A stretch of DNA of 63,938 nucleotides, filler included, from an uncultured Methanosarcinales archaeon (GTDB lineage: Archaea; Nanobdellota; Nanobdellia; Woesearchaeales; CAYSVS01), in the NCBI GenBank assembly GCA_964434475.1. It is 3 parts of 3 records of this genome, joined end to end, with 100 filler letters (N's around TTAATTAATTAA, not from the genome) between each part and the next. Parts side by side here need not be neighbours in the genome. Positions count along the whole stretch, not along the records: positions 26,610 to 51,337 come from CAYSVS010000016.1; 2 more parts are not named here. The stretch is one strand, 5' to 3'. The notes beneath the pieces are model-generated. The model made no database searches. It saw only the letters and a list, made by a program, of their open reading frames with translations, and had not been told where the DNA came from. The first letter of the stretch is position 1, and each line of letters begins with the position of its first letter. Below are positions 4,962-51,437 of this stretch, in pieces. Both the position numbers and the translations under genes were made by a program.

Positions 4962-5704
4962 TTTTTAGCACCTCCTTCAGCTGCTTGTGCAGGAGCTGCT
5001 TCTTTAGCAGTTTCAACAGGAAGCATAGGCTCAAATATTTGAATAGGAATCTCAGCTTCCAGCATCTTTGCCTTGATATCTGATCTAGACTTACCTCCCA
5101 TACTTGAAAGTATCTCTTTAGCTTTAGCTTCAAATTCACTTCTTTTCTTATCTATATCTTCCCGTAGTTTCTTTTTCTCTTCCTCTAGCTCTTTCATCTC
5201 TTCATCACTAAGCTCTGTTTTTCCAGAGGTTATTTCCTGATCAAACTTGCCTTCATTGACTGATTTTATAGCGTCTCTTGCGTCTATTCCTTCTACCAAT
5301 ACACCCATAGAATCACAAGTACCTATGATTTCTTTTACTCTCTGTTTAGTATCTTTACCAAGCAGACCATCTTCTTTCATTTTTGAAATCTTGATAATCT
5401 GTTCAATCTTTAGATCTGCAATCTTATCCTTGTTTGGCACACCGCTTCCTTTTTGTATTCCTGCCTCTTTCTTGATCAAAGCACTGGCAGGAGGAGTACC
5501 TACTGTAATTTCAAAATCTTTCGATTCTGTGTCTATTATTACCTTGACAGGAACCTGCATACCTTTAAATTCTGCAGTTTTTTTGTTTATATCTCCTACA
5601 ACCTGCCCTATGTTAACACCCATAGGACCTAAAGCAGGACCTAATGGAGGAGCAGCTGTAGCCTTTCCTCCTTCAATCAAAACTTCAACAGTTTCTTTCG
5701 CCAT
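4958..5704 (-). CDS. rpl11: 50S ribosomal protein L11 with ~85-aa C-terminal extension
   Basis: GGKATAAPPLGPALGPMGVN, GTPPASALIKK, IIGTCDSMG. Confidence 0.95.
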   Translation of the reverse strand: MAKETVEVLIEGGKATAAPPLGPALGPMGVNIGQVVGDINKKTAEFKGMQVPVKVIIDTESKDFEITVGTPPASALIKKEAGIQKGSGVPNKDKIADLKIEQIIKISKMKEDGLLGKDTKQRVKEIIGTCDSMGVLVEGIDARDAIKSVNEGKFDQEITSGKTELSDEEMKELEEEKKKLREDIDKKRSEFEAKAKEILSSMGGKSRSDIKAKMLEAEIPIQIFEPMLPVETAKEAAPAQAAEGGAKK

Positions 5705-5811
5705 ATGATATTCACCTTTTAATAATTATTACAGCCGACTAGAAGCGCATCAATTAGTTGGCTTTATTTCCTGAATAAATAGTTGGTTTATAAAAGTTTC
5801 GGAGATAAGAA

Positions 5812-7152
5812 TTAAATTCTCCAGCCTTGCTCCATCTTTGCAACAGATGAATACTGCCTTGCAAAAGCCCATGCTTTCTTGTCAGGATGATACTTCCAGA
5901 AGTTGATACCCCAATCATGATCTTCTTCACGATACTTATCAGCCATAAGATTCTTTATATGTCTTGGATGCCAATCTCCATTTATGAACATATCTCTTAC
6001 AAACTTCTTCATATCTCTTGGCTGAAGCATCCTTGGATAAGGAATCTCAACAACGCTTTTTGTTTTCTCGCTCAATCTTTCATCTCTTAACGCCTTTGCC
6101 GCAGCATCTCCAGGAGAAAGATCATACCCACTATGACAATAGTCGTGGTGCTTTTTCAGGTTAGAATCTTTATATTCATTAACCAGACTTACTATTCCCT
6201 CATCAGAACAAGGAATATATCCTGAGAATTCATGAGAATGAGCTACTGCGTGATCAAGATTCCACATGAATTTGATAAGCATATTTAAATCTGTTTCAGT
6301 ACTATCAAGGATTACATTATTCGGTCCATCAAAATATCTGCCTATTACATCCACCAAAGGTTTAGATCCCATACCAAACTTCTGACTTCTTTTCTTATGC
6401 GCTCCAAAAGGCGAACGTATTATCCTCATAAAAGCAGGATCAGCAGTCCAACTGATATCTATGTTCATACATTTATTTTCTGAATCCCATATAGTTATAG
6501 GCATGCCTTCTCCTTCTTCAACATCCTGCTTTGTCTTCAAAGCAAGGTATTCTGCAAGTATACATATTCCAGAATAAACTGATGCTGCTTCTTTTCCAGG
6601 AGCAGGATTTCTTTTCAGATCTCCGCGATCAAGAAAATCATATGCTTTAAATACAGCATTATCCTCATATCCTATTTCTTTAAGAGCGTCCCATGCCTTT
6701 GTATCTCTTTTTATGTACGTCAAGAAATGACCTCCTGAAGGAGTATAGTCTAAAAGATAAGGAATATTATGGTTTTCTAACTTATCCGCAAGATAATTTT
6801 TTACAGGAGATATATATTTTTGAAAATAATGGAACTGTGAATCTTCCTTGGCATACAGATCCTTAAAATCCTGTAAAAATATTTCAAAATCAAAAGGCAT
6901 AAGTATAGCTTCGCACTTATCGACTCTTCCAGTATGCTCATTCTTGCTTCCTAGTACAGGAATAAATATCTCTAATTCTTTATTTACAGTTAAATCCCAT
7001 AAACTATGCGTAGGTTCAACAGTAACCAATAAATTATTAGGATCCCATCCATATCTTATCAACTCTCTCCCATATCCAAGAACAAAATGAGAATGCTGAA
7101 AACAGTTATTCAATTTTCCAAAAACCTTTTGATAATATTCTGACAATTCCAT
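5812..7152 (-). CDS. Divergent AEP (primase-polymerase) superfamily-like protein, paralogue A
   Basis: Candidate motif I PFDFE, motif II YTPSGGHF, motif III NIDISW...RIIRSPFGAH; homologous to 7230-8843. Confidence 0.55.
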   Translation of the reverse strand: MELSEYYQKVFGKLNNCFQHSHFVLGYGRELIRYGWDPNNLLVTVEPTHSLWDLTVNKELEIFIPVLGSKNEHTGRVDKCEAILMPFDFEIFLQDFKDLYAKEDSQFHYFQKYISPVKNYLADKLENHNIPYLLDYTPSGGHFLTYIKRDTKAWDALKEIGYEDNAVFKAYDFLDRGDLKRNPAPGKEAASVYSGICILAEYLALKTKQDVEEGEGMPITIWDSENKCMNIDISWTADPAFMRIIRSPFGAHKKRSQKFGMGSKPLVDVIGRYFDGPNNVILDSTETDLNMLIKFMWNLDHAVAHSHEFSGYIPCSDEGIVSLVNEYKDSNLKKHHDYCHSGYDLSPGDAAAKALRDERLSEKTKSVVEIPYPRMLQPRDMKKFVRDMFINGDWHPRHIKNLMADKYREEDHDWGINFWKYHPDKKAWAFARQYSSVAKMEQGWRI

Positions 7153-7229
7153 ACTATACGCCTTTCTTTTTTTGAATACATGAGATTCAGAAAACTATTT
7201 TAAATTAATTTAGGTTTTACAGAATATAA

Positions 7230-8843
7230 TCACAAACCAGGCAATATGATAGAAGGCCATTTAGCCCATTCTGCCTTAGAATATTTATTTGATTTATCCT
7301 CATGCTCAAAAATACCTTTCCTGCAGGGATCAGTATACAATGCATACATCAATACAAGCATATCTCTTGGAACAAACCCAGTATTATGCATCTGACTGAA
7401 AATATATTGTAAAGCTTTTGGATCCTTTACCTTATCATCATCATATACGTCTTTCATTATCCACCCGCACCTTTTCCTTATAGGTTCATAATTACTCTCT
7501 CTCATATATTTCACATAATTTTCATCTATAATCCAATCAAGAAGATAATCGTCATACTGCTTTATCTTGCTTCTTTTATAATCTGAAATAAGGTTTAATA
7601 TACCTTTGCTTCCATCCGGAATCCTAGAATTTGATTCCCTTAGATGATGCCATGCAGCATTTCTATTTGCTCTTGTATGAAGCATATGCCCTATGTCGCC
7701 TTTAAAATAATCCTTATTATGCATGCTGTTACTTCTTGGTATTCTTACAAGATCAGGATTATTCACTTTACCATATACACTTCCTGAACTGCCCAAAACA
7801 GCCATATTTGATTGTCTTAATAAAGAAGTAAGATCCAAAGATATTGTTTTATGATGCGTATCTGAATAATTAATAAAAGGATCGTATCCATGTTCAGCCA
7901 GATTTTTTCTCATCTCTGAAGCCATACTAATTTGAATAAATTTTTCTAACTTTTTTGCACCCTGATATGCAACCTGAGCAAGAAGAGGAGTAGGAAAACC
8001 TTTTCTGCTTTCAAATTTGACCGTAACCAATTTATCTACTGTTTCAGCCTGCAAAGGCCCTCCTATAGCCATCAACTCAAGCATAGCTCTGTTTATACCT
8101 GCTTTCTCGTCCTTACTATGCAAAGGCACTTCTGAAAGAAAATGATAACCTTTTCCTGTCAACATCTCCAAAAAATCAAGACCATAATCATTGAACGTAT
8201 TTGTTGTGACATACCTCACACCTTCGAGCCAAGTAAAATATCCATAAGGATTTTGCAAAATGTTTTCTTTATTACCTTCCTCTACTACTTCATCATCAAG
8301 AGATAAAAGCTGACTTACTGGCTTTTGTTTAAGATAGCTTTTGAGCATATTCTGCATCTCAACATCATATTTATTGAAGATATTATCACACTCAGAAGAT
8401 ATAATATGATCAAACTCTCTTCCCCCATCTAATGCAACTGAAAAAGCCTTCTTGTAAATGTCATTAATGTTTTTCCAATTATTTCTGATTATCTCCATAA
8501 ATTCATTATCCCTTCCATTAAGTTTGATTATATCATCAGATTTAGACATTATCGCCCTGTAGAATTCAGCAGGTTTGCCTATTATTTCTTCACCATATAA
8601 TTTTATACTTTTGATTAGGTAAGGAGGCAAAGATTCAAATCTGCGATTTGTATTGAAACCAAACTTAGACATAATTTCGCTCAATCTAGAGGATAATGCA
8701 ACCTGATACTTGCTTTTATAATTCCTATATACATCCATAAAATGCTCTATGCTTTCTACATGATCAATAGGCTTTCCATCTATCTCAGCACCATTAAACT
8801 GAGCATCTGCAGATAATACACAAGGCTCACAATTCCATACCAT
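7230..8843 (-). CDS. Divergent AEP-like protein, paralogue B (degenerate motif I, helical insertion)
   Basis: LTGKGYHF motif II and ISLDLTS motif III. SRIPDGSKGILNLISDYKRS aligns with GYIPCSDEGIVSLVNEYKDS of paralogue A. Confidence 0.5.
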   Translation of the reverse strand: MVWNCEPCVLSADAQFNGAEIDGKPIDHVESIEHFMDVYRNYKSKYQVALSSRLSEIMSKFGFNTNRRFESLPPYLIKSIKLYGEEIIGKPAEFYRAIMSKSDDIIKLNGRDNEFMEIIRNNWKNINDIYKKAFSVALDGGREFDHIISSECDNIFNKYDVEMQNMLKSYLKQKPVSQLLSLDDEVVEEGNKENILQNPYGYFTWLEGVRYVTTNTFNDYGLDFLEMLTGKGYHFLSEVPLHSKDEKAGINRAMLELMAIGGPLQAETVDKLVTVKFESRKGFPTPLLAQVAYQGAKKLEKFIQISMASEMRKNLAEHGYDPFINYSDTHHKTISLDLTSLLRQSNMAVLGSSGSVYGKVNNPDLVRIPRSNSMHNKDYFKGDIGHMLHTRANRNAAWHHLRESNSRIPDGSKGILNLISDYKRSKIKQYDDYLLDWIIDENYVKYMRESNYEPIRKRCGWIMKDVYDDDKVKDPKALQYIFSQMHNTGFVPRDMLVLMYALYTDPCRKGIFEHEDKSNKYSKAEWAKWPSIILPGL

Positions 8844-26509: not shown

Positions 26510-26609
26510 NNNNNNNNNNNNNNNNNNNNNNNNNNNNNNNNNNNNNNNNNNNNTTAATTAATTAANNNNNNNNNNNNNNNNNNNNNNNNNNNNNNNNNNN
26601 NNNNNNNNN
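26510..26609. other. Artificial contig linker N44-TTAATTAATTAA-N44
   Basis: Six-frame stop cassette in N padding; identical at 51338-51437. Confidence 0.97.
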
Positions 26610-28912
26610 AACCTTGTATTATTTAATATAGGCCTTCCTTTCCAGCATCCTGCGTATGAACCGCCTTCAAAGCTTTCATTGATGTCATCGCCGCAGCAAT
26701 GATTCTCAACTTCGCCTGAATTCTCGCTTGATTTTGTTGTCCACCAATAACCTGGTGTTTCCATGCAGGCTAAACTATCCTCATCAAGATTATCTTCCCA
26801 TTTGAAATCAGAAGTACAATATTTATTATTATTATCGTCTGAATTGCTCAAATATACCCTATCAACAAAAAATACATTGTATCTAGGATCGCCCTTGTAG
26901 TCTACCCTTTCATTATCATTAGGGTTAAAAAAGTCTTTTCTTAAAAAGAATCCCATATCCTGCACATCATCCAACCCAATATTTCCTAGATCAGATAAAG
27001 GTATTCTAATCCTGTGCCATTTCATAGGCTGCTCACCATTTACAGAATATTTAATAACATGAGAGATATATTTAGTGCTTTGTTTGCCTTTGACAAACAA
27101 GCCTATGTTTGAGTTGCCTGCAAAAGCAAGGAATAATTCAAGATAATCATAATCTCTCCAATCATTTACCATAGTCTCTTGGTTCAATGCTTTAAACAAT
27201 GCATCCGATCCCTCAACAAACTTATATTCCCTTAATTTTGTATTCAATGCTGTCTGGTCCAATATAGAAACAACATTATGATCGCTAGGATACCTCATAC
27301 CGCCTGCATAAAAATTCATATCTGTTATCAATGCAGCTGGTTCTCCTTGCCTTCTTACTCTATCCTTAGCATTCAAATTTTCTCTGCAAGTGTTCATATC
27401 AGAAGAATCATAAGCGCAGCAATCCAAAAAAATGGATCTATCGCCATCATCAAAGCACAAGAAAGCACTTGCTGTTTTTGAAGGCAGGTTAGAAGTATCA
27501 AAAGTAGCGAAGAACAGATCAGACATATCTTGTTCTATTTCGACTTGCTTTTCATACTCCTCGTTTTCCTCAGGGGCTTCATTGGTTATCTCGTTTACAG
27601 TTACTTTTTCAAAGCAATCAGATGATGAACTTGTAACTATATTGGGTTTTATATCTTGTTCTGAAGTAGATAGTGATCCTTGAACAATCCAGTCTCCTGT
27701 CTCTGTACCTTCTTCTTCAGCAACTGCATCTATAGTTTGCATATTTTCAAGAACACTTCCTGTCAATCCTGCAATAGGCAAAGATTCTCCTGTCTGTTTG
27801 CAAGTATGCCAAGTATAATAATCAGAAACAATATCTCTATCTTGTGTAGCTGTTTTTACATTAAATATCTTAAATTTATTAGCAGAAGCTTTTTTCCATT
27901 CCCAATCATTATCATCTTCTTTCACATATGTATCAACAACTGCATCAAAATTTGAATCAGGCAGCAAGCAAGCTTTATCGCTTCCTTCTGGTTGATTAGA
28001 ATCAGCTTCTTGATAATACCCTAGATCTGATTGAAAATCATCTCCGCAGCATCTGTTGCTTGTAGAATCTGAATTCCATACATCGATTATTACTTCAGTT
28101 ATACGCGAAACATCATCTTCCTGTGATTCTTCTGGTTTAACGCTTCCTGCGCATTTATAACTTCCTGATTCTGAGGTTCCGCCTGTTGCTGAAGCTGGTA
28201 ATACACATGTTATTGAGCCGATGTTAGCTGCTTTGCTATTTAGGTTTTCTTTGCATGTGTATATGTACCAGTAATCATTACATCTATAACAAGAACCTCC
28301 TGCTTCATAAAGACTAGGATCTGATTGGATATTATAACATTCATTCTCACTTACTTTTTGCGGATTTTTACAAGCCTTACATTGGTCATCCTGTAATTCA
28401 CATACAACATTATCATTATCGATCGTAGTAGGGGAATATATTTGAGTTGTTGAGAAAGCACAAGCAGAATATTGCGCTGCTAAATTTGTCATCACCTGTT
28501 TTTCATACTGCCAAATGTACTCCTTATCTATGCTTATCTGCGTACAACTAGGATATGGATCGCCAGGTATTGGTGGTATAGGTACTCCATGTGCTTCTAT
28601 ATCTTGTTGTCCTTGATTTCTCAAAAGTTCAGGAGGTGTTGAAACAGAGAATAAATAATCTCCGTCTTCGTAACATTCTGGTTTTAATGTATTTCCATCA
28701 TAACAGCTCAAATCGCAAGATTCTGAATTCATACTGTTACCCAAGTTAACAGATTGTCTCAATAAACCTTGTTCTTTAACAACTTCTGGATCTTCATGCT
28801 TTATAGTGCATACCATTTTATCACCAAAAACACTCAAAGAATTTGCTATTAATAAGAATATAATTAGATAAGATATAACAAAACCTCTATTTTTATAAAA
28901 TACTATACCCAT
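26610..28912 (-). CDS. Large secreted Cys-rich protein (3'-truncated at contig end)
   Basis: KNRG-FVISYLIIFLLI class-III-like signal, repeated CCGDD motifs and a CBM-like segment (WHRIRIPLSDL). Confidence 0.75.
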
Positions 28913-28972
28913 TAATAAACCCCTTTTTTAATAAAAATATATTTAAATAATATATAAACTTTATGTTTTAAA

Positions 28973-29980
28973 ATGTTAATATATTATGGTATTACAATTA
29001 TCTTGCTTGGCATTATAACAAGCTATGAGGATATTAAAAAAAACAAGATAAGGAATAAGATAGTCTTAAGTGCAATAACTATAGGAATAATTCTTAATTC
29101 AATTTCATACTATCAAAAGGCTATAGGAACACAATATCTATATGAACTTATAACAAACGTCCTCATTACAATAATTGCCGCTTTTGCAATATGGAATTTT
29201 GGATTGTGGAGTGCAGGAGATGGCAAACTGTTCATAGCTTATTCTGTGCTTATTCCTTTATCTTTTTTCAGGATAGGTTATCAAAAATATTTTCCATCTA
29301 TAACCTTGTTGATAAACACATATATCCCTCTACTAATAATAATGTTGATATATGTAATAGTCAAAGCAAAAAAAAAGGACAGGAAAAAGCGGTTTAAAGA
29401 ATTTATCAAAGGTTTTTTTGACATGAAAAAAACAATCCTATCAATAATCTATCTATTGGCTTTTTTATGGATAATAAGTCTGGCATTGATAAAGATAGGG
29501 GTAGATAACTATATGTTGATGTTATTCTTAACAATACTTATCTACTACATTATCCAAAGAAAGTTAGGAAAAAAAACACTATATATTGCAATAATCATAA
29601 TGATTATCAGGCTAGCGACAGATAAATCGATATACTCAATAAACTTCCTTAAAGAATTGCTGATGTTGTTTATAGTATGGAAATTGTTATATAGTTTTCT
29701 TCAGGGTGCTTTGTACAAACTTGCTCATGACGTTTTTAGCTACAAGATCAGCACAAGCAAACTTAAACCAGGAATGATATTAAGTGATGACATTAATTTA
29801 GATATAGACGAAGAAGCAGAAGGTTTGACAAGAAAACAGATAGAAACAATAAAAAGATCAAATATAGAAGAGGTTAAGATAAGCCAAACAATGCCTTTTG
29901 CAGTTTTCATGTTTTTAGGAACAATCATAACGATGATTGTGGAAGGCAATGTAATAATATATCTGATAAGGTTGATATGA
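28973..29980 (+). CDS. A24 family prepilin-type aspartic peptidase
   Basis: SYEDIKKNKIRN and WSAGDGKL catalytic Asp motifs; C-terminal MPFAVFMFLG; multi-TM. Confidence 0.88.
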   Translation: MLIYYGITIILLGIITSYEDIKKNKIRNKIVLSAITIGIILNSISYYQKAIGTQYLYELITNVLITIIAAFAIWNFGLWSAGDGKLFIAYSVLIPLSFFRIGYQKYFPSITLLINTYIPLLIIMLIYVIVKAKKKDRKKRFKEFIKGFFDMKKTILSIIYLLAFLWIISLALIKIGVDNYMLMLFLTILIYYIIQRKLGKKTLYIAIIIMIIRLATDKSIYSINFLKELLMLFIVWKLLYSFLQGALYKLAHDVFSYKISTSKLKPGMILSDDINLDIDEEAEGLTRKQIETIKRSNIEEVKISQTMPFAVFMFLGTIITMIVEGNVIIYLIRLI

Positions 29981-30283
29981 ATGGAATCAAAAACAATAAG
30001 ATTGAATAAAAACATATACTCTCTGGAAGTAATTTTCTCTGCTGCTTATGTTTTTCTTGAGAAAGCATACATAAAACTCGATGAAGAAAATGAAAACATA
30101 GTAGTGAACATAAGCCAAAAACAGGGTCAAGACATGCAAAATATAGAGAAAGAATTTTTGAATGAATTGATAAATTATTCAGATTATAAAAAAAGAGCAG
30201 AAAGATCAAGAAACATAAGGGAAATAATAATACAAAGAGCTATCTTGACAAATGAAACAGAGCAAAAGAAATATCAAAAATGA
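29981..30283 (+). CDS. hxsD: His-Xaa-Ser system HxsD-like protein
   Basis: IYSLEVIFSAAYVF...EFLNELINY...IREIIIQRA; immediately upstream of HxsB-like rSAM. Confidence 0.8.
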   Translation: MESKTIRLNKNIYSLEVIFSAAYVFLEKAYIKLDEENENIVVNISQKQGQDMQNIEKEFLNELINYSDYKKRAERSRNIREIIIQRAILTNETEQKKYQK

Positions 30284-30480
30284 TAATAAGATTGAATAAC
30301 AAGATATATTGTAGAAAGGCTATAAAACTAGCTTTGGAAGATTACAAAGATATATGTGCAGGAAAGATAATAGATGAAAGCTTTGAAGTAAAGCTATCGC
30401 CGAAACAAGAAACAAAATATTTAGAAAAAGAGTTCTGCAATTATATAATAGGTATTATGAAAAATGAGAAAATGATCTAA
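30280..30480 (+). CDS. Second, short HxsD-like protein
   Basis: IRLNNKIYCRKAI...EKEFCNY resembles the previous ORF (IRLNKNIYSLEVI...EKEFLNE); ATGA overlap. Confidence 0.7.
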   Translation: MIIRLNNKIYCRKAIKLALEDYKDICAGKIIDESFEVKLSPKQETKYLEKEFCNYIIGIMKNEKMI

Positions 30481-30481
30481 G

Positions 30482-31864
30482 ATGGAAAACAATATCAATT
30501 TCTACAGATACAAGAAATTCAATGAAAAATATTTTCTTACAACCGATCATGGAAGCTATTGCGTACTGGATGAAAAAGAGTTTAGTAATTTAAAAAAAAA
30601 AGATATAAACAGTATCCTAAAACAAAAGCTTGAACAAAGCGAAATTCTCTTGGACAAAAGCACAATAGAAGAATCTGTTAGGTTGACAAGAAAAAGAAAC
30701 CATTTTCTGTTCAACGGTGCTTCGTTGCACATTGTCGTTGTAACATTAAGATGCAACATGAACTGCATATATTGTCATGCGAGCTCTGAACAAGAAAACA
30801 AAGATGAATTTGATATGGATAAGGAAACAGCGAAAAAAACAGTTGATTTTATATTTCAGACACCAAGTAAAGATATTTGCATTGAGTTTCAAGGTGGAGA
30901 GCCTTTGCTCAACATTGAAATAATAAAATACATAGTAGAATATGCTAAAGAAAAAAACAAAGAAGCAAAAAAAGAACTAGAATTTACTTTGGTAAGCAAC
31001 TTAAGTTTGATGGACGACAAAATCTTGGATTATCTTATAATAAACAACATAAGCATATGCACTTCTTTGGACGGACCTAAGGAGTTGCACGATTATAACA
31101 GAATATTCTCTAAAACAAGCAATTATGAACAAGTTACATATTGGATCAGAAAAATACAAGAGGAATACAAGAAAAGAAACATAAAAAACAAAAAAATAAA
31201 TGCATTGGTTACATTGACTAACAAAAGCCTGCAATACTCTAAAGGAATAATAGATGAATATGTTAAACTAAGATTGAATATAATCCACCTAAGATATCCT
31301 AATAATTTAGGTTTTGCTAAAGAAGCATGGAAAAACATCAGGTTTTCGGCAGACGAGTTTATAGGATTCTGGAAAACATGCATGGAATACATCAAAGAAC
31401 TTCAGAACAAGGGAATAAACATCCAAGAGAGGATGTTCAACATAATGTTCAAGAAGATAAACGAACAATATGACCCTAATTATCTGGATCTTAGAACACC
31501 TTGCGGCGCTGTAATAAGTCAATTAACATACAATTATAATGGAAATATTTTTGGCTGCGATGCTGCAAGAATGCTGCAAGATAACATCTTCCAGATAGGG
31601 AATGTACACAAAGATAATTACAAAGAAACAACAAATTGCGACAAAGCTTGTACAATAATTAACGCTTCAATAAATGATCAATACATATGTGACGATTGTG
31701 TTTACAAACCCTATTGCGGAGTTTGTCCTGTAATAAATTATTCAGAACAAGGAAATATAATAGGAAAGATAACACAAACTGACAGATGCAAGATATTGAA
31801 ACAGCAGTTTGATTATGTAGTTAAAGAAAAGTTTATAAATACAGAAAATAATTATTATGATTAA
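30482..31864 (+). CDS. hxsB: Radical SAM/SPASM peptide maturase, HxsB-like
   Basis: TLRCNMNCIYCHAS, EFQGGEPLL, TSLDGP, DLRTPCGA, and SPASM Cys pattern CDDCVYKPYCGVCP...C. Confidence 0.88.
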   Translation: MENNINFYRYKKFNEKYFLTTDHGSYCVLDEKEFSNLKKKDINSILKQKLEQSEILLDKSTIEESVRLTRKRNHFLFNGASLHIVVVTLRCNMNCIYCHASSEQENKDEFDMDKETAKKTVDFIFQTPSKDICIEFQGGEPLLNIEIIKYIVEYAKEKNKEAKKELEFTLVSNLSLMDDKILDYLIINNISICTSLDGPKELHDYNRIFSKTSNYEQVTYWIRKIQEEYKKRNIKNKKINALVTLTNKSLQYSKGIIDEYVKLRLNIIHLRYPNNLGFAKEAWKNIRFSADEFIGFWKTCMEYIKELQNKGINIQERMFNIMFKKINEQYDPNYLDLRTPCGAVISQLTYNYNGNIFGCDAARMLQDNIFQIGNVHKDNYKETTNCDKACTIINASINDQYICDDCVYKPYCGVCPVINYSEQGNIIGKITQTDRCKILKQQFDYVVKEKFINTENNYYD

Positions 31865-32120
31865 CGTGGTCAATTTTCCTAAACTAAAGAAAAAGATAGA
31901 ATCATTCTTGACAAAAGAAGATGGAAAAATAAGCAAAGAGAACATAGTAAAAACAGGAATAGTGTTAAGCGTAGCAGCTGCTGCCGCAGTAAAAAACAGC
32001 GATGCAGATTGTCCTCCAACGATAGGAAAATACAATGACCATTGCAACGGATTAAGTGTTACTATGCCAACACCAAAAACAGTCAAGGCAACGCACAATC
32101 ATGCAGTCAACGAAGGTTAA
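31857..32120 (+). CDS. Putative RiPP precursor peptide with pilin-like leader
   Basis: Overlaps the rSAM stop. Leader FLTKEDG-KISKE, a hydrophobic stretch, then a core with HCN and HNH. Confidence 0.75.
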   Translation: MINVVNFPKLKKKIESFLTKEDGKISKENIVKTGIVLSVAAAAAVKNSDADCPPTIGKYNDHCNGLSVTMPTPKTVKATHNHAVNEG

Positions 32121-32785
32121 ATATAATCTTGAGGATTAGATTTTCTGTGTATATTATTCTGTATTTTATTATACATATTGGTGCAAGAATCCTTTGCTTC
32201 TTTTGGATGCATTCCGAGCACAGTAAAAAAAGTACATAAATCCTTCGCAGTTCGCATCTCATAAGGATCGTTTGCAAAGCTCGCAATTATAGAATTTATC
32301 TTATACTTTCTTATCAGCTTTATGTTCTGCATTATCCTTCCAAGAAATTTAACCCTGTTTTTATCGTCATTAAGCAATGTTGAAAACGCAATACCTAAAG
32401 ATATTTTTTTTTCTTTTAACAATTTACAAAGTACTTGATTCAATCCTGATTCTCTGTAGTGGATAGGATCAGATAATTCAGAACATTCTAAGTCATAGAT
32501 TATATCCATCTCTTTTCTTTCAAAAAATTTTCTTTCCCTATTGTTGGTCAATACTATATCAGCAATCTTCTTTGCTTTTCTTGCTTTAGTTAAATCTTTT
32601 ATCCTTAACCCTAAAAATATATGGATCTTGCTGTTTTTCAGAGCATTATCCTTGAACTTGTTAAATTTCTTGATATCAAAACTACTAAAATCATACACAA
32701 AGCACAATGCTTTTATGCCTAGCTTATCTGCAAAATCTACAAATTTATCTTCATTGTTCTTTGGAAAGACTATATCACGAAACAT
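32117..32785 (-). CDS. rnp3: Ribonuclease P protein component 3 (Rpp30)
   Basis: SGLNQVLCK, RIMQNIKLIRKY, SFANDPYEMR. Confidence 0.85.
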   Translation of the reverse strand: MFRDIVFPKNNEDKFVDFADKLGIKALCFVYDFSSFDIKKFNKFKDNALKNSKIHIFLGLRIKDLTKARKAKKIADIVLTNNRERKFFERKEMDIIYDLECSELSDPIHYRESGLNQVLCKLLKEKKISLGIAFSTLLNDDKNRVKFLGRIMQNIKLIRKYKINSIIASFANDPYEMRTAKDLCTFFTVLGMHPKEAKDSCTNMYNKIQNNIHRKSNPQDYI

Positions 32786-34447: not shown

Positions 34448-35287
34448 TTAGTTGTTTTGCAGTTCATCCAACTTTTTTTCAATTTCTTCCTTTGTCATAC
34501 CGACCAAAGGTCTAAACTCTACTAATCCTATATCTAATTGCTCAACTTCATCTAAAGTTTGTCCAACAACAACTGCGTTAATTTTATGTTTTTCAGCAAT
34601 TTCTTTAATCTCTTTTTTGTTAGATATTTTTATGTTCTCTAACTTTGCCCCGCAAGAATATTTTTCTAAAACATCATATGCAATATTTCCTAGATTCAAC
34701 AAAACAACAGGACACCCTCTTTTCATCATAAGAAACGCAGCATATATGTCTTTCCTGTCTTCAAGCAGACAAAGCAATTTTCCTGCGCTTCCTAAAGGCA
34801 ATCCTCCAACAGCTTTCTTTTTTTCTGAAAAAACATATGCTTTATCCTTGACTATCTCTATGCATATTTCTTTATCAAAATTTTTAAGGTTAACCTTTGC
34901 TTTTGTTTTCTCAACAACATAAGCTCCAATCTCTCTGTCAATTTCCATAGACGTTTTTTTATGGCCTTTATTGCTTCTTTGTGTTGTTACCCTAAATTTT
35001 GTTTTTTCGTCAAAATCACATATTACGTGAGAAACAGTTTGTTTTATAGATTCAATATCTGAATCGCAAACCTTTGCATAACTATAGCTGACAATTCCAA
35101 ATATATTTTTTATTTCATCAAATTTTTCATCAGTATAAACGAACAATCTTCCATGACTTTTTACTATCTTATCAAAAGAAATATTATTTTTTTTCAGGCA
35201 TTGCTTGACATTATCTTTCAGAATATCCTCAAATATTTTTCTGTTTCCACCTTTTAACGCTATCTCTCCGTATCTAACAATTATCAT
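34448..35287 (-). CDS. ThiI-like THUMP protein with degenerate catalytic domain
   Basis: IVRYGEIALKGGNR, THUMP domain, GGLPLG and MMKRGC retained; SGGIDS PP-loop absent. Confidence 0.85.
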   Translation of the reverse strand: MIIVRYGEIALKGGNRKIFEDILKDNVKQCLKKNNISFDKIVKSHGRLFVYTDEKFDEIKNIFGIVSYSYAKVCDSDIESIKQTVSHVICDFDEKTKFRVTTQRSNKGHKKTSMEIDREIGAYVVEKTKAKVNLKNFDKEICIEIVKDKAYVFSEKKKAVGGLPLGSAGKLLCLLEDRKDIYAAFLMMKRGCPVVLLNLGNIAYDVLEKYSCGAKLENIKISNKKEIKEIAEKHKINAVVVGQTLDEVEQLDIGLVEFRPLVGMTKEEIEKKLDELQNN

Positions 35288-36798
35288 TTTCTTTTCTTGT
35301 AGTCTTCAATCGCTTTTCTTAACGCATCTATGGAAAGATTAGAGCAATGAAGCTTCAGCGAAGGCAATCCTCCTAATTCATCAGAAATATCCTTGTTAGT
35401 CATCCTTTCTATCTCTGTTAGAGTCCTTCCCTTGACCATCTCGGTCATCTTTGAGCTTGTAGCGATTGCGGCAACACACCCGAACGTCTTTACCTTGATA
35501 TCTTTTATGTATTCTTTGCCTTCCTCATTTTTCTCTACTTTGATAAAAACTTCCATCACATCTCCGCAATTATGTAAAATAAATGCCTCTGAGATAAATG
35601 ATTTGGTTTTATTGACTTCAAGGTTGTGGACTGTTCCATTATATTTTATCTTTTTAACCGAAGATAAAGGCATAAAAAGATAATTTTTATCAAACCAAGA
35701 GTCGATTGATTTTCTTTTTGCTGATTTAAATTTAATCTTCAATATATCTGCTAATTTTTTAAGAGACTCCCTGTGACCTATATGAATTCTATATGCTTCT
35801 TTATGAAAAAGACCTTTTCTTTCTTTTGCAGCTTCTACATAAATTGAAGGCACTATTTTTTGTCTAATTAGTAATATTTTAATCTGTTGACAAAGTCTTC
35901 TAGATATAGTTGCATATCCCGCACGAGATTTATTTATATTAAAAAAACCATCTCCTTTCCAAAGACCATAGATTAAGCTTTTCTGTTTCTCAGGAGGAAG
36001 TAACATAAAAAAATAAGGAATAGATTTGTTTTTAGCGCCATTATCAAATAATTCTTTAAAAAGACGCGCTATCCAAACATTATATATGTGTACTGCGACG
36101 ACATTGCTATTTGTTCTGAACTCTTTCTTACCATTAATACCAAATAAATGTTTTACAATATAAAGTACGTCATCTGCAAGATGATTCTCGTTGATATTAA
36201 ATGAAAAAGTCAGATAAGTTTTACAGGTTTTAAGCCTTATGCTGCCTTCAGCCAAATAATAACCAGATAATCTTAAAAATTTTGCATTAATAGGGATCTT
36301 TTTAGGTATAGATATACTCTTGAAATCCCATTTTTTTTTAACATTGTTATAGTAAATATAATCCTTATCTTCAATTATTTTTAGAATAGGATATAATACA
36401 ACATCATTTTTTTCTAAATCATAAGCATGATACCATGCTGACAGCAATTCTTTTTTATTCTTGATTCTAGCAAATTTATCTTTTTTAGGAACTTTGACAG
36501 CTAAAACCATATGCTCAGGGGTTAAAAGAATGTTTCCTAACTTATTTTTAAATTCTATCAAAGAACCATAATATTTTCTTTTTGATATATTTTCAACAGC
36601 ACTGTATTTGCCATTACAGTCTAGGACCTTGTGATTTCTGGTTATTTCTTCAATAGGCAATAAAGCACCCTCTAAATGTATATTAAAACCCTTTGCAATG
36701 CATGTAGGATTTCCTACCCTGCCTATGCCGTTAGCATCTTCCAGCTTCCCCATATTTTTAGGATTCTTAAATTGATCTATCACTTTTTCATTGTACAT
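35284..36798 (-). CDS. iscU: IscU/NifU-type Fe-S scaffold interrupted by an intein (126 aa after splicing)
   Basis: N-extein ...NPKNMG...VGNPT; C-extein CGDVM...KTFGCVAAIATSS...KLHCS. Confidence 0.92.
   Translation of the reverse strand: MYNEKVIDQFKNPKNMGKLEDANGIGRVGNPTCIAKGFNIHLEGALLPIEEITRNHKVLDCNGKYSAVENISKRKYYGSLIEFKNKLGNILLTPEHMVLAVKVPKKDKFARIKNKKELLSAWYHAYDLEKNDVVLYPILKIIEDKDYIYYNNVKKKWDFKSISIPKKIPINAKFLRLSGYYLAEGSIRLKTCKTYLTFSFNINENHLADDVLYIVKHLFGINGKKEFRTNSNVVAVHIYNVWIARLFKELFDNGAKNKSIPYFFMLLPPEKQKSLIYGLWKGDGFFNINKSRAGYATISRRLCQQIKILLIRQKIVPSIYVEAAKERKGLFHKEAYRIHIGHRESLKKLADILKIKFKSAKRKSIDSWFDKNYLFMPLSSVKKIKYNGTVHNLEVNKTKSFISEAFILHNCGDVMEVFIKVEKNEEGKEYIKDIKVKTFGCVAAIATSSKMTEMVKGRTLTEIERMTNKDISDELGGLPSLKLHCSNLSIDALRKAIEDYKKRK
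35569..36702 (-). mobile_element. Intein with LAGLIDADG homing endonuclease (378 aa)
   Basis: Starts Cys (CIAKG), block B LTPEH, LAGLIDADG blocks LSGYYLAEG and IYGLWKGDG, block F VHNLEV, ends HN followed by Cys+1. Confidence 0.93.
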
Positions 36799-38504: not shown

Positions 38505-39131
38505 ATGGATAAAAAAATAGCATTATTGTTGTTAAGTCAAGGAATAGATAGTCCTGTTGCCGGGCATATGATAAAAAAGCAAGGAATAGAGATTGAAGCC
38601 ATACATTTTGATACAGGAAATTCTATAGACACGATCAAAGAATTGTGTGCAAAAACAAAAATAAAAAAACTATACCTGATAAAATACAGTAAAGTATTGA
38701 AACAAATTTCTAAAATATGTAAAAAGGATTTGACTTGTGTACTGTGTAAAAGAACTATGCTGAAGATTGTTGAAAGATTGGCACAAAAAAAAAATATCAG
38801 CTATTTGATAACTGGGGATAATATAGCGCAAGTTGCAAGCCAGACAGTAGAAAACATGATAGCCATAAGATCCAATATAAATATGCCCATACTTAGTCCC
38901 TTATTGGGTTTTGATAAGCAAGAGATAATAGATATCGCAAAAAAAATAGAAACATATGAAATAAGTACGCAGAATGTTTCTAAGTGCTCTTTTGTACCTC
39001 TTAAGCCAATAACAAAAATAAGGACAGAAATTTTAGAAAAAGAAGAAAAGAAGTTAGAAAATGAAAAAATAATGAAAATAGCATTAGAAAATTGCAAAGA
39101 ATGTATCATAAACAGCACTAAAAAGCATTAA
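38505..39131 (+). CDS. Stand-alone ThiI catalytic (PP-loop) domain
   Basis: LLSQGIDSPVA, CVLCKR, TGDNIAQVASQT, PLLGFDKQEII, KCSFVP; no THUMP domain. Confidence 0.85.
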   Translation: MDKKIALLLLSQGIDSPVAGHMIKKQGIEIEAIHFDTGNSIDTIKELCAKTKIKKLYLIKYSKVLKQISKICKKDLTCVLCKRTMLKIVERLAQKKNISYLITGDNIAQVASQTVENMIAIRSNINMPILSPLLGFDKQEIIDIAKKIETYEISTQNVSKCSFVPLKPITKIRTEILEKEEKKLENEKIMKIALENCKECIINSTKKH

Positions 39132-51337: not shown

Positions 51338-51437
51338 NNNNNNNNNNNNNNNNNNNNNNNNNNNNNNNNNNNNNNNNNNNNTTAATTAATTAANNNNNNN
51401 NNNNNNNNNNNNNNNNNNNNNNNNNNNNNNNNNNNNN
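51338..51437. other. Artificial contig linker N44-TTAATTAATTAA-N44
   Basis: Same cassette as 26510-26609. Confidence 0.97.

Follow-up and report, generated by a model that had tools for sequence, protein, structure and literature searches.

This article concerns a short open reading frame (ORF) and the gene cassette that it closes, in a 63,938-nucleotide stretch of DNA (the window) joined from three parts of the genome of an uncultured archaeon labelled Methanosarcinales and placed by GTDB among the Woesearchaeales (assembly GCA_964434475.1). The ORF would encode the substrate peptide of an archaeal relative of the His-Xaa-Ser (Hxs) radical S-adenosylmethionine (SAM) systems, and a pilin-type membrane peptidase belonging to this archaeal branch probably trims its leader. 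Five genes lie head to tail on the + strand (28973-32120). The first (28973..29980, +) encodes an A24-family (GxGD) intramembrane aspartic peptidase of 335 amino acids, an Hxs-linked paralogue that scores 31.9 bits against PF01478 (cut-off 26.5). Then come HxsD (100 amino acids; 29981..30283, +; TIGR03976, 63 bits, cut-off 50), an HxsD-like protein of 66 amino acids (30280..30480, +; NF038315, 52.4 bits, cut-off 41), whose gene overlaps its neighbour by 4 nt and abuts that of HxsB, and the HxsB radical SAM/SPASM maturase itself (460 amino acids; 30482..31864, +; TIGR03978, 444.5 bits, cut-off 370; PF04055). The last gene is our ORF, the 87-residue precursor peptide (31857..32120, +), which is recognized by a leader match to NF038309. 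Its ATG at 31857 overlaps the HxsB stop (31862-31864) by 8 nt, so that the start of the precursor is coupled to HxsB in what is a translationally coupled cassette. At the other end, its TAA (32118-32120) shares two bases with the stop of a convergent gene, that of the RNase P p30 subunit (32117-32119, - strand; PF01876). We scanned 53 ORFs of the window and found no HxsC or other PF04055 radical SAM protein besides HxsB, and no pilus-assembly gene family, pilus ATPase or platform protein. A first-pass annotation of this DNA had the ORF, its coordinates and its translation right, and its proposal that the product is the precursor of a radical SAM cassette is borne out by a leader found family-wide and by the coupled position in the cassette. 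On these grounds the ORF is a real precursor peptide gene.

The peptide falls into four segments. Residues 1 to 23 (31857..31925, +) form a leader that is basic and then acidic (P8, K11, K12, F17, L18, E21), with the heptapeptide FLTKEDG at residues 17 to 23, and it ends at Gly23, the first of two candidate cut sites. Residues 24 to 34 (31926..31958, +; K-I-S-K-E-N-I-V-K-T-G) are charged, include the conserved I25 and K27 as well as Glu28, which stands at +5 from Gly23, and end at the second candidate, Gly34. An uncharged run of hydrophobic and small residues, I35 to V45 (31959..31991, +), would be the export or membrane segment, and residues 46 to 87 plus the stop codon (31992..32120, +) make up the core. 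No Pfam domain was found on the 87-residue precursor, and residues 6 to 41 match positions 1 to 36 of the 81-position NF038309 (HxsA3) profile at E 3.4e-6 and 26.8 bits, under its cut-off of 65 bits.

A word-index search yielded three homologues of the precursor, and a profile of nine leaders was then run against 1.84 billion proteins, where it matched 737 cluster representatives at E<=1e-3 and 139 at E<=1e-10. We aligned 147 of 152 proteins on a sequence pattern, setting aside one protein of 2131 amino acids and four that lacked the pattern. The consensus begins K-(I/L/F)-P-K-(I/L)-K-K-K-(I/V)-S-(S/A)-F-L-x-x-E-(E/D)-G and continues K-I-S-K-(E/Q/K)-(S/N)-(L/I)-(L/I)-K-x-G, after which an uncharged stretch follows. 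The F17 position is Phe or Tyr in 147/147 of these leaders, E21 is Glu in 147/147, Gly23 is Gly in 146/147 and Gly34 in 138/147, figures to be read with the knowledge that the pattern limited the letters at several positions (at F17 to F/Y/W/L/I/V/M) and demanded Lys at +4. Because of that restriction, a pattern-free MAFFT alignment of 97 sequences is the cleaner control; there E21 is invariant, and P8, K11, K12, F17, L18, G23, I25, K27, G34 and H80 are each conserved in at least 90%. The F-L-x-x-E-(E/D)-G leader is therefore conserved as the first-pass annotation had claimed. The Glu at +5, which it had chosen as its own test, is not: among the 147 leaders the +5 residue is Glu in 55, Gln in 53, Lys in 21 and something else in 18, and in the non-archaeal clades it is Lys in 27 of 30. 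The first ten residues after Gly23 include 2-5 charged ones in 150 of 151 relatives. Across the family, the uncharged stretch runs to a median of 17 amino acids (interquartile range 14-21; mean Kyte-Doolittle value 1.59), and to 11 in the window precursor. None of four precursors matched the Pfam Flp or class III signal models at E<=10 (the hits to other models were at chance level), in a search in which the HMMER filters drop most weak matches.

The core contains Cys52 and Cys63 and three His residues (62, 80 and 82), set in H62-C63-N-G-L and T-H80-N-H82, and it has no H-x-S triplet at all. The first-pass annotation called this core non-canonical, but it is no oddity. Of 151 representatives of the leader family, 27 have no such triplet and 25 have one, and a core free of H-x-S is typical of the branch whose precursors are linked to an A24 gene, where the median is 1 triplet (n=13) against 17 in other clades (n=41), counted on stop-to-stop ORFs of which some are cut by contig ends. 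Two core motifs recur in the family, H-(T/S)-N-x-L and (A/G)-T-H-x-H, and the window core keeps both, as H-x-N-x-L and T-H-x-H. The particular form C-P-P...H-C-N-x-L is found in the window precursor, in P0002 (its closest homologue), in P0059 and at locus L100. As for the tail, an xHxH motif is present in 84 of the 151 representatives, and 8 residues or fewer come after it in 14 of them, the window precursor included; 77 of 151 have Tyr or Trp as their last residue, and Gly, with which the window precursor closes, is last in only 5 of 151. No His-rich remnant appears among the plus-strand ORFs listed downstream of its stop. The suggestion that a His-rich tail had been truncated at the convergent gene is not required, since a tail this short is within the family's range; judged against its relatives, with its rare Gly end, it gives a mild hint of oddity. 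Some members of the family are extended instead: in P0059 and P0093, and in ORFs at L012:1855-2697, L016:4443-5504 and L032:4471-5142, a Hint/intein-like domain (C-F-x-A-G-T ... H-N-C) comes after the His motifs. The tail of P0059 matches TIGR01443, an intein C-terminal splicing model, at E 5.9e-4, which suggests that some radical SAM substrates of the leader family carry a self-cleaving C-terminal extension.

The peptidase at the head of the cassette appears complete. Its catalytic residues Asp20 and Asp83 (the latter in the motif A-G-D-G-K) are invariant in 85 homologues, as are N28, K85, L86 and N115. An AlphaFold2 model (predicted local distance difference test, pLDDT, 92.8) superposes on the preflagellin peptidase FlaK (3S0X_B) with Z 14.9 and an rmsd of 3.6 Å over 176/186 residues; the next chain reached Z 5.9 and no other had Z>=8. 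FlaK was also the top Foldseek match (E 0.05, probability 0.99), and a sequence search of the PDB with the peptidase returned nothing at E<=1. Relatives of the enzyme carry PF06819, and the best of roughly 110 homologues in its subfamily are labelled Woesearchaeota or Nanoarchaeota. On the strength of the invariant Asps and the model, the window A24 is an intact FlaK-fold paralogue. By profile score it also stands apart from the prepilin peptidase that these genomes keep for housekeeping: members of its subfamily score 297-336 bits against the subfamily profile and generic A24s 30-48 bits, in five genomes. The genome of the Woesearchaeota locus L002 illustrates the point with three A24 genes, one of them generic (58 bits, the genome's best Pfam match) and two of the window's subfamily. 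One of the two lies 11 kb upstream of the first Hxs cluster, and the other heads a second cluster in the order A24, HxsD, HxsB and a 133-residue precursor without H-x-S. HxsD gave an AlphaFold2 model with pLDDT 92.7, in which a beta-alpha-beta-beta arrangement is followed by a long helix; compared with the idea of a PqqD-like role in leader recognition, Foldseek gave weak KH/Pcc1-like matches (E about 0.01).

How closely does this peptidase keep company with Hxs genes? Metagenome contigs were scanned with an HxsB alignment, and the best 80 of 258 relatives were kept as loci. Thirteen of the 80 contain a close homologue of the window A24 (phmmer E 2.8e-86 to 5.7e-13); in six of these it is contiguous and co-oriented with HxsD, and in one it is adjacent but divergent. 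In a FastTree phylogeny of HxsB with 79 rows, all 12 A24-bearing rows (11 of the 13 loci, the remaining 2 having partial HxsB only, plus the window) belong to one clade of 23 rows with local support 100. Counting as informative those rows with at least 2.5 kb of upstream sequence, A24 is present in 12 of 17 inside this archaeal clade and in 0 of 32 outside it, among relatives of Moraniibacteriota and Paceibacterota type. The six named members of the archaeal clade include a Woesearchaeota metagenome-assembled genome (MAG), a Methanosarcinales-labelled MAG, two MAGs labelled 'archaeon' and the Campylobacterales-labelled L006. The last of these is probably a binning error: although L006 was binned as Campylobacterales, its Hxs locus is near-identical to that of the archaeal MAG L005, with HxsB end branches of 0.03 and 0.06. 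The families common to at least 4 of 15 A24-bearing loci are A24, HxsD-type, radical SAM and precursor only, and the non-archaeal Hxs loci have no conserved protease of another kind. In nine related genome loci, a tblastn search for A24 gave only E 0.2 and 0.59, and PF01478 was absent from the 57 of 74 selected ORFs covered by the Pfam scan; the 17 others were mainly HxsB, HxsD-type and precursor ORFs identified by tblastn, together with the five ORFs that make up the short loci L001 and L006. Two of these systems look like expanded versions, in which the HxsB-precursor pair is flanked by four to five additional radical SAM genes (L002, Woesearchaeota, and L003, Moraniibacteriota).

The same association is visible in whole genomes. 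In a sample of 151 genomes of the phylum to which the L002 genome belongs, the A24 subfamily is present in 18 (19 copies) and HxsB in 17. The two coincide in 14 genomes; 4 have A24 but no HxsB, 3 have HxsB but no A24, and the other 130 have neither (odds ratio 152, Fisher p 1e-13). The p value is uncorrected for relatedness and overstates independence, because the sampled genomes are related. For 15 of the 19 copies, an HxsB, an HxsD or a precursor with the leader lies no more than 12 kb away. Ten of them share a contig with HxsB at a distance of 0.5-12 kb, one precedes an HxsD gene where its contig stops, one runs directly into a precursor, one stands in the order A24, HxsD, precursor, radical SAM, and one has a precursor-like ORF 1.1 kb upstream. 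Yet another, at L111 (G078:C2, ~5439-7396, -), heads a group of A24, HxsD, an HxsD-like gene and a 68-residue leader-bearing precursor with a single His, with no radical SAM gene in 13 kb. Because the trio of A24, HxsD and leader peptide persists there with no radical SAM gene detected, it may be a self-standing export and processing module. Of the copies with no Hxs link, contig ends cut off 2, and for the other 2 the surrounding 5-6 kb shows no Hxs part. Going by these distributions, the A24 subfamily is specifically linked to archaeal Hxs clusters, and the enzyme very probably belongs to the precursor's pathway. The functional tie between the neighbouring A24 and radical SAM cassettes that the first-pass annotation had supposed thus gains support from the locus counts, the clade and the co-occurrence in 151 genomes, and through this linkage the processing of the precursor by A24 is well supported by context.

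Where the enzyme would cut is a choice between two glycines. Gly23 and Gly34 are both candidates, between which gene context cannot discriminate. The first-pass annotation had the peptide cut after Gly23 as a Flp-pilin-like site; the FLTKEDG-type motif it pointed to is conserved, but Gly23 is not the sole candidate, and Gly34, a conserved Gly directly before the hydrophobic run, seems at least as good. In the 17 A24-linked precursors that we read, Gly occupies site 1 in 15, the other 2 having Ala, and site 2 in 13, with Ser and Ala accounting for 2 each. According to a review, prepilin peptidases cut at the cytoplasmic face and the hydrophobic helix stays on the mature protein (PMC4187195). 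Gly34 is favoured because such a cut leaves the helix on the mature protein, and because Gly23 precedes a charged decapeptide. On the side of Gly23, Asp or Glu occupies +5 of site 1 in 9 of 17 A24-linked precursors against 2 of 30 in the non-archaeal clades, most of the nine coming from one subclade; an acidic +5 would echo the substrates of the archaeal peptidase EppA, which have a negative charge at that position (PMC4187195).

The explanation that we consider, on balance, probable makes the ORF product the substrate of an archaeal (DPANN-type) branch of the His-Xaa-Ser radical SAM system that is poor in H-x-S, and has the A24 peptidase trim its leader. HxsB, aided by the two HxsD-type proteins, would modify the His/Cys core in the cytoplasm. 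The hydrophobic segment would insert in the membrane with the Lys-rich leader inside, and the dedicated A24 would cut at the cytoplasmic face, after Gly23 or Gly34, to free the leader. The modified core would then end outside the cell, either tethered by its short hydrophobic segment or released by a further cut at a small-residue site before the core. By analogy with bacterial HXS, the product may act at the envelope against viruses. A broader claim is that a paralogue of the prepilin/preflagellin (A24, GxGD) protease was recruited as the dedicated leader peptidase of a radical SAM-modified peptide, so coupling cytoplasmic maturation to class III-type processing and export; this we put forward tentatively, as a possibility.

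Several observations weigh against this explanation. The link between A24 and the precursor is drawn from gene context, and five of the 17 informative archaeal-clade loci have no adjacent A24. Among A24-linked precursors, site 1 is occupied by Ala in two and site 2 by a residue other than Gly in four. In the bacterial clades, of the candidate phyla radiation (CPR) type, the leader glycines are kept with no A24 adjacent (27/30 at the Gly23 position, 25/30 at the Gly34 position, counted as -1 and +11), so that at least part of the conservation of the motif is owed to the HxsB and HxsD that these systems share; it could be owed wholly to recognition by HxsB and HxsD. The CPR genomes of these clades do have a generic A24 elsewhere. 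Known A24 substrates fit neither site well: Gly23 is followed by 2-5 charged residues within ten, and Gly34 has its Lys at -3 rather than -2 and a hydrophobic segment of 11 residues, where the family median is 17. Small residues at -1 and -3 before the first core His, seen by eye in most relatives, would suit signal peptidase I. Finally, an antiviral role that the archaeal product may have is proposed purely by analogy.

In a rather unlikely alternative, the leader is only a docking element for HxsB and the HxsD proteins joined to a Sec-type signal, Sec exports the peptide, signal peptidase I cuts before the first core His, and A24 has a different substrate or task within the cassette. The leader motif is equally conserved where no A24 adjoins, the precursors have an n-region, an h-region (median 17 residues) and a c-region in the right order, with Ala, Gly or Ser at -1 and -3 before the core in most relatives, and the one canonical HXS genome that we searched has no A24. 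Escherichia coli HxsA, moreover, has a signal peptide and is periplasmic, according to the available portions of PMC13128918. What this alternative leaves unexplained is an intact A24 that accompanies HxsD and precursor even where radical SAM is lacking, or abuts a precursor directly, and the A24-bearing loci have no other substrate family in common. To us it is improbable that Gly23 is a literal Flp/type IVb-like prepilin site, with Glu28 as the pilin +5 Glu and a pilin-like or filament-forming ribosomally synthesized and post-translationally modified peptide (RiPP) as the product. Such a site could claim the Gly found in 146 of 147 leaders, the invariant E21, a dedicated A24 and the acidic +5 of about half the A24-linked precursors with its EppA parallel (PMC4187195), but Glu itself is at +5 in only 55 of 147 and the acidic residues come mostly from one subclade. 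Cleavage there would create a polar N-terminus, with 2-5 charged residues in +1 to +10, unlike that of any pilin; the hydrophobic segment has 11 residues, four precursors gave no Flp or class III match in Pfam, and no pilus ATPase or platform was found in the 53 window ORFs or among the families common to A24-bearing loci. The Flp or pilin-like signature that the first-pass annotation read into the peptide is therefore not upheld, and a pilin-like product is unlikely.

It is extremely improbable that the A24 sits beside the cassette by chance or serves the divergent upstream protein of 784 amino acids (26558-28912, -). The N-terminus of that protein is a basic stretch ending in Arg-Gly before a hydrophobic run, like an archaeal class III signal, the only such pattern among window ORFs of at least 60 amino acids, and its gene is a divergent neighbour of the A24 gene. 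It has no counterpart in the other 14 A24-bearing loci, unlike the Hxs parts, and for that reason we reject it as the A24 substrate; that the A24 subfamily is distinct from housekeeping A24 and the co-occurrence statistics also argue against it. The protein itself is Cys-rich and presumably secreted, with at least 784 amino acids, a class III- or Sec-like N-terminus and no Pfam match, and the 3' end of its gene enters a run of N. Nor do we give much weight to the idea, which we find very doubtful, that the window precursor is a decayed or truncated copy and no longer a working substrate. Its lack of H-x-S, its stop abutting rpp30, its Gly end where 77 of 151 relatives have Tyr or Trp, and the H-x-S repeats with which P0002 continues could all be read in that way. 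Set against them are a leader and two core motifs that are intact, a start coupled to HxsB, the general poverty of A24-linked precursors in H-x-S (median 1 versus 17), equally short tails in 14 of 84 relatives and another family member, P0010, that ends much alike. We return, then, to a working precursor of an archaeal Hxs branch, its leader probably trimmed by the A24 of that branch.

How does such a system compare with those already described? HXS is the HxsD-HxsB-HxsC-HxsA anti-phage system of Pseudomonadota (Li et al., Nat Commun 2026, PMC13128918). As set out in the portions of that paper available to us, HxsA is cut near its N-terminus in a non-canonical way, for which HxsB, HxsC and HxsD are needed, and is exported; the product has SHRSS altered by +8 Da and works from the periplasm to keep phage DNA from entering. 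The window cassette resembles HXS in an HxsB and an HxsD above their NCBIfam cut-offs (444.5 vs 370; 63 vs 50) and in a His-motif substrate encoded alongside, with an N-terminal export-type segment and with N-terminal processing that, as in HXS, would be tied to the maturation genes. It differs in having no HxsC or second radical SAM among the 53 ORFs scanned and an extra short HxsD-like protein, in a substrate of 87 residues with neither a peptidoglycan-binding domain nor H-x-S repeats, in the position of the precursor after HxsB and in its archaeal host. It also has its own A24, which the available portions of PMC13128918 do not mention. Related as well are the repeat proteins HxsA3 (NF038309) and HxsA4 (NF038313), which have a homologous leader and genes beside HxsB and HxsD-type genes; the HxsD-like protein passes NF038315, and a CPR-type relative (L003) passes the HxsA4 cut-off. 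The window precursor and 7 other archaeal-branch precursors score 19.8-40.4 bits against the 65-bit cut-off of HxsA3, with mainly the leader matched, and the repeat tail for which these families are named is absent from the window peptide. By score, then, the archaeal-branch precursors fall below the NCBIfam HxsA3 and HxsA4 cut-offs, while the system based on HxsB and HxsD is itself already known. A literature search covering few subscription journals found nothing that uses the names HxsA2, HxsA3, HxsA4 or HxsD-like, and nothing that joins a prepilin peptidase with a RiPP or leader peptide, or with radical SAM and a precursor peptide. The canonical set seen in Flavobacterium (L009, 433-11370), with HxsA (PG_binding_1), HxsD, HxsB and HxsC, stands among a reverse transcriptase, a family-A polymerase, RadC, an HNH nuclease and GmrSD; these surroundings suggest a defence island, which would agree with the anti-phage role reported for HXS.

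RiPP leaders are removed by C39 double-Gly transporters, subtilisin-type LanP and other peptidases. The window cassette would resemble those pathways in encoding, within the cluster, a protease that presumably takes off a conserved leader with Gly at its end, and would differ in protease class, which here would be that of the intramembrane A24 aspartic peptidases. For the enzyme there are archaeal parallels. Archaea use dedicated A24 paralogues beside their substrates, as EppA with EpdA-C, and PibD processes non-pilin proteins (PMC4187195). The window enzyme is like FlaK, PibD and EppA in being a predicted FlaK-fold GxGD protease with both Asps and a candidate substrate encoded alongside, in the manner of eppA with epdA-C. 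The peptide recalls class III signals in part, through the conserved Gly34 ahead of its uncharged run, and PibD sets a precedent for substrates other than pilins. The differences are a leader of 23 or 34 residues with a conserved acidic motif in place of a short basic stretch, charged residues after Gly23, a short hydrophobic segment, no pilus-assembly genes in the window scan and a substrate predicted to be modified by radical SAM.

The rest of the window contributes a setting. Its gene set is archaeal (TBP, MCM, PolD, Cdc6, aIF), and the relatives of this archaeon are DPANN-like. A scan for promoters and terminators across 28800-32300 gave nothing above shuffled sequence, and the sole result from PADLOC (2023) was a weak match of HxsB to a viperin-type radical SAM model. 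A NifU-like Fe-S scaffold gene (35284-36798, -) is split by an intein with a LAGLIDADG homing endonuclease domain (PF01592, PF14528 and PF14890). ThiI is apparently split as well: the ferredoxin-like/THUMP part and the PP-loop part have a gene each, ~3 kb apart and in opposite orientation (34448-35287, -, and 38505-39131, +). Four runs of 44 N occur in two pairs (26510-26553 and 26566-26609; 51338-51381 and 51394-51437) and presumably mark scaffold gaps or masked stretches.

The function of HXS in blocking phage DNA entry was assigned only recently, and the cutting and export of its effector are still called non-canonical, and left unexplained, in the available portions of PMC13128918. The archaeal branch puts a name to a concrete candidate for this step, a dedicated, operon-encoded A24 that is catalytically intact as far as its sequence tells. 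It also offers small and simple substrates, of 68-133 amino acids, on which the cut site and the radical SAM chemistry on His/Cys motifs could be mapped. If our explanation is true, prepilin-type peptidases would have a wider range of substrates than the pilins, archaellins and binding proteins known for them, RiPP-like pathways would gain a class of protease to which they have not yet been linked, and DPANN archaea would carry relatives of a bacterial envelope defence.

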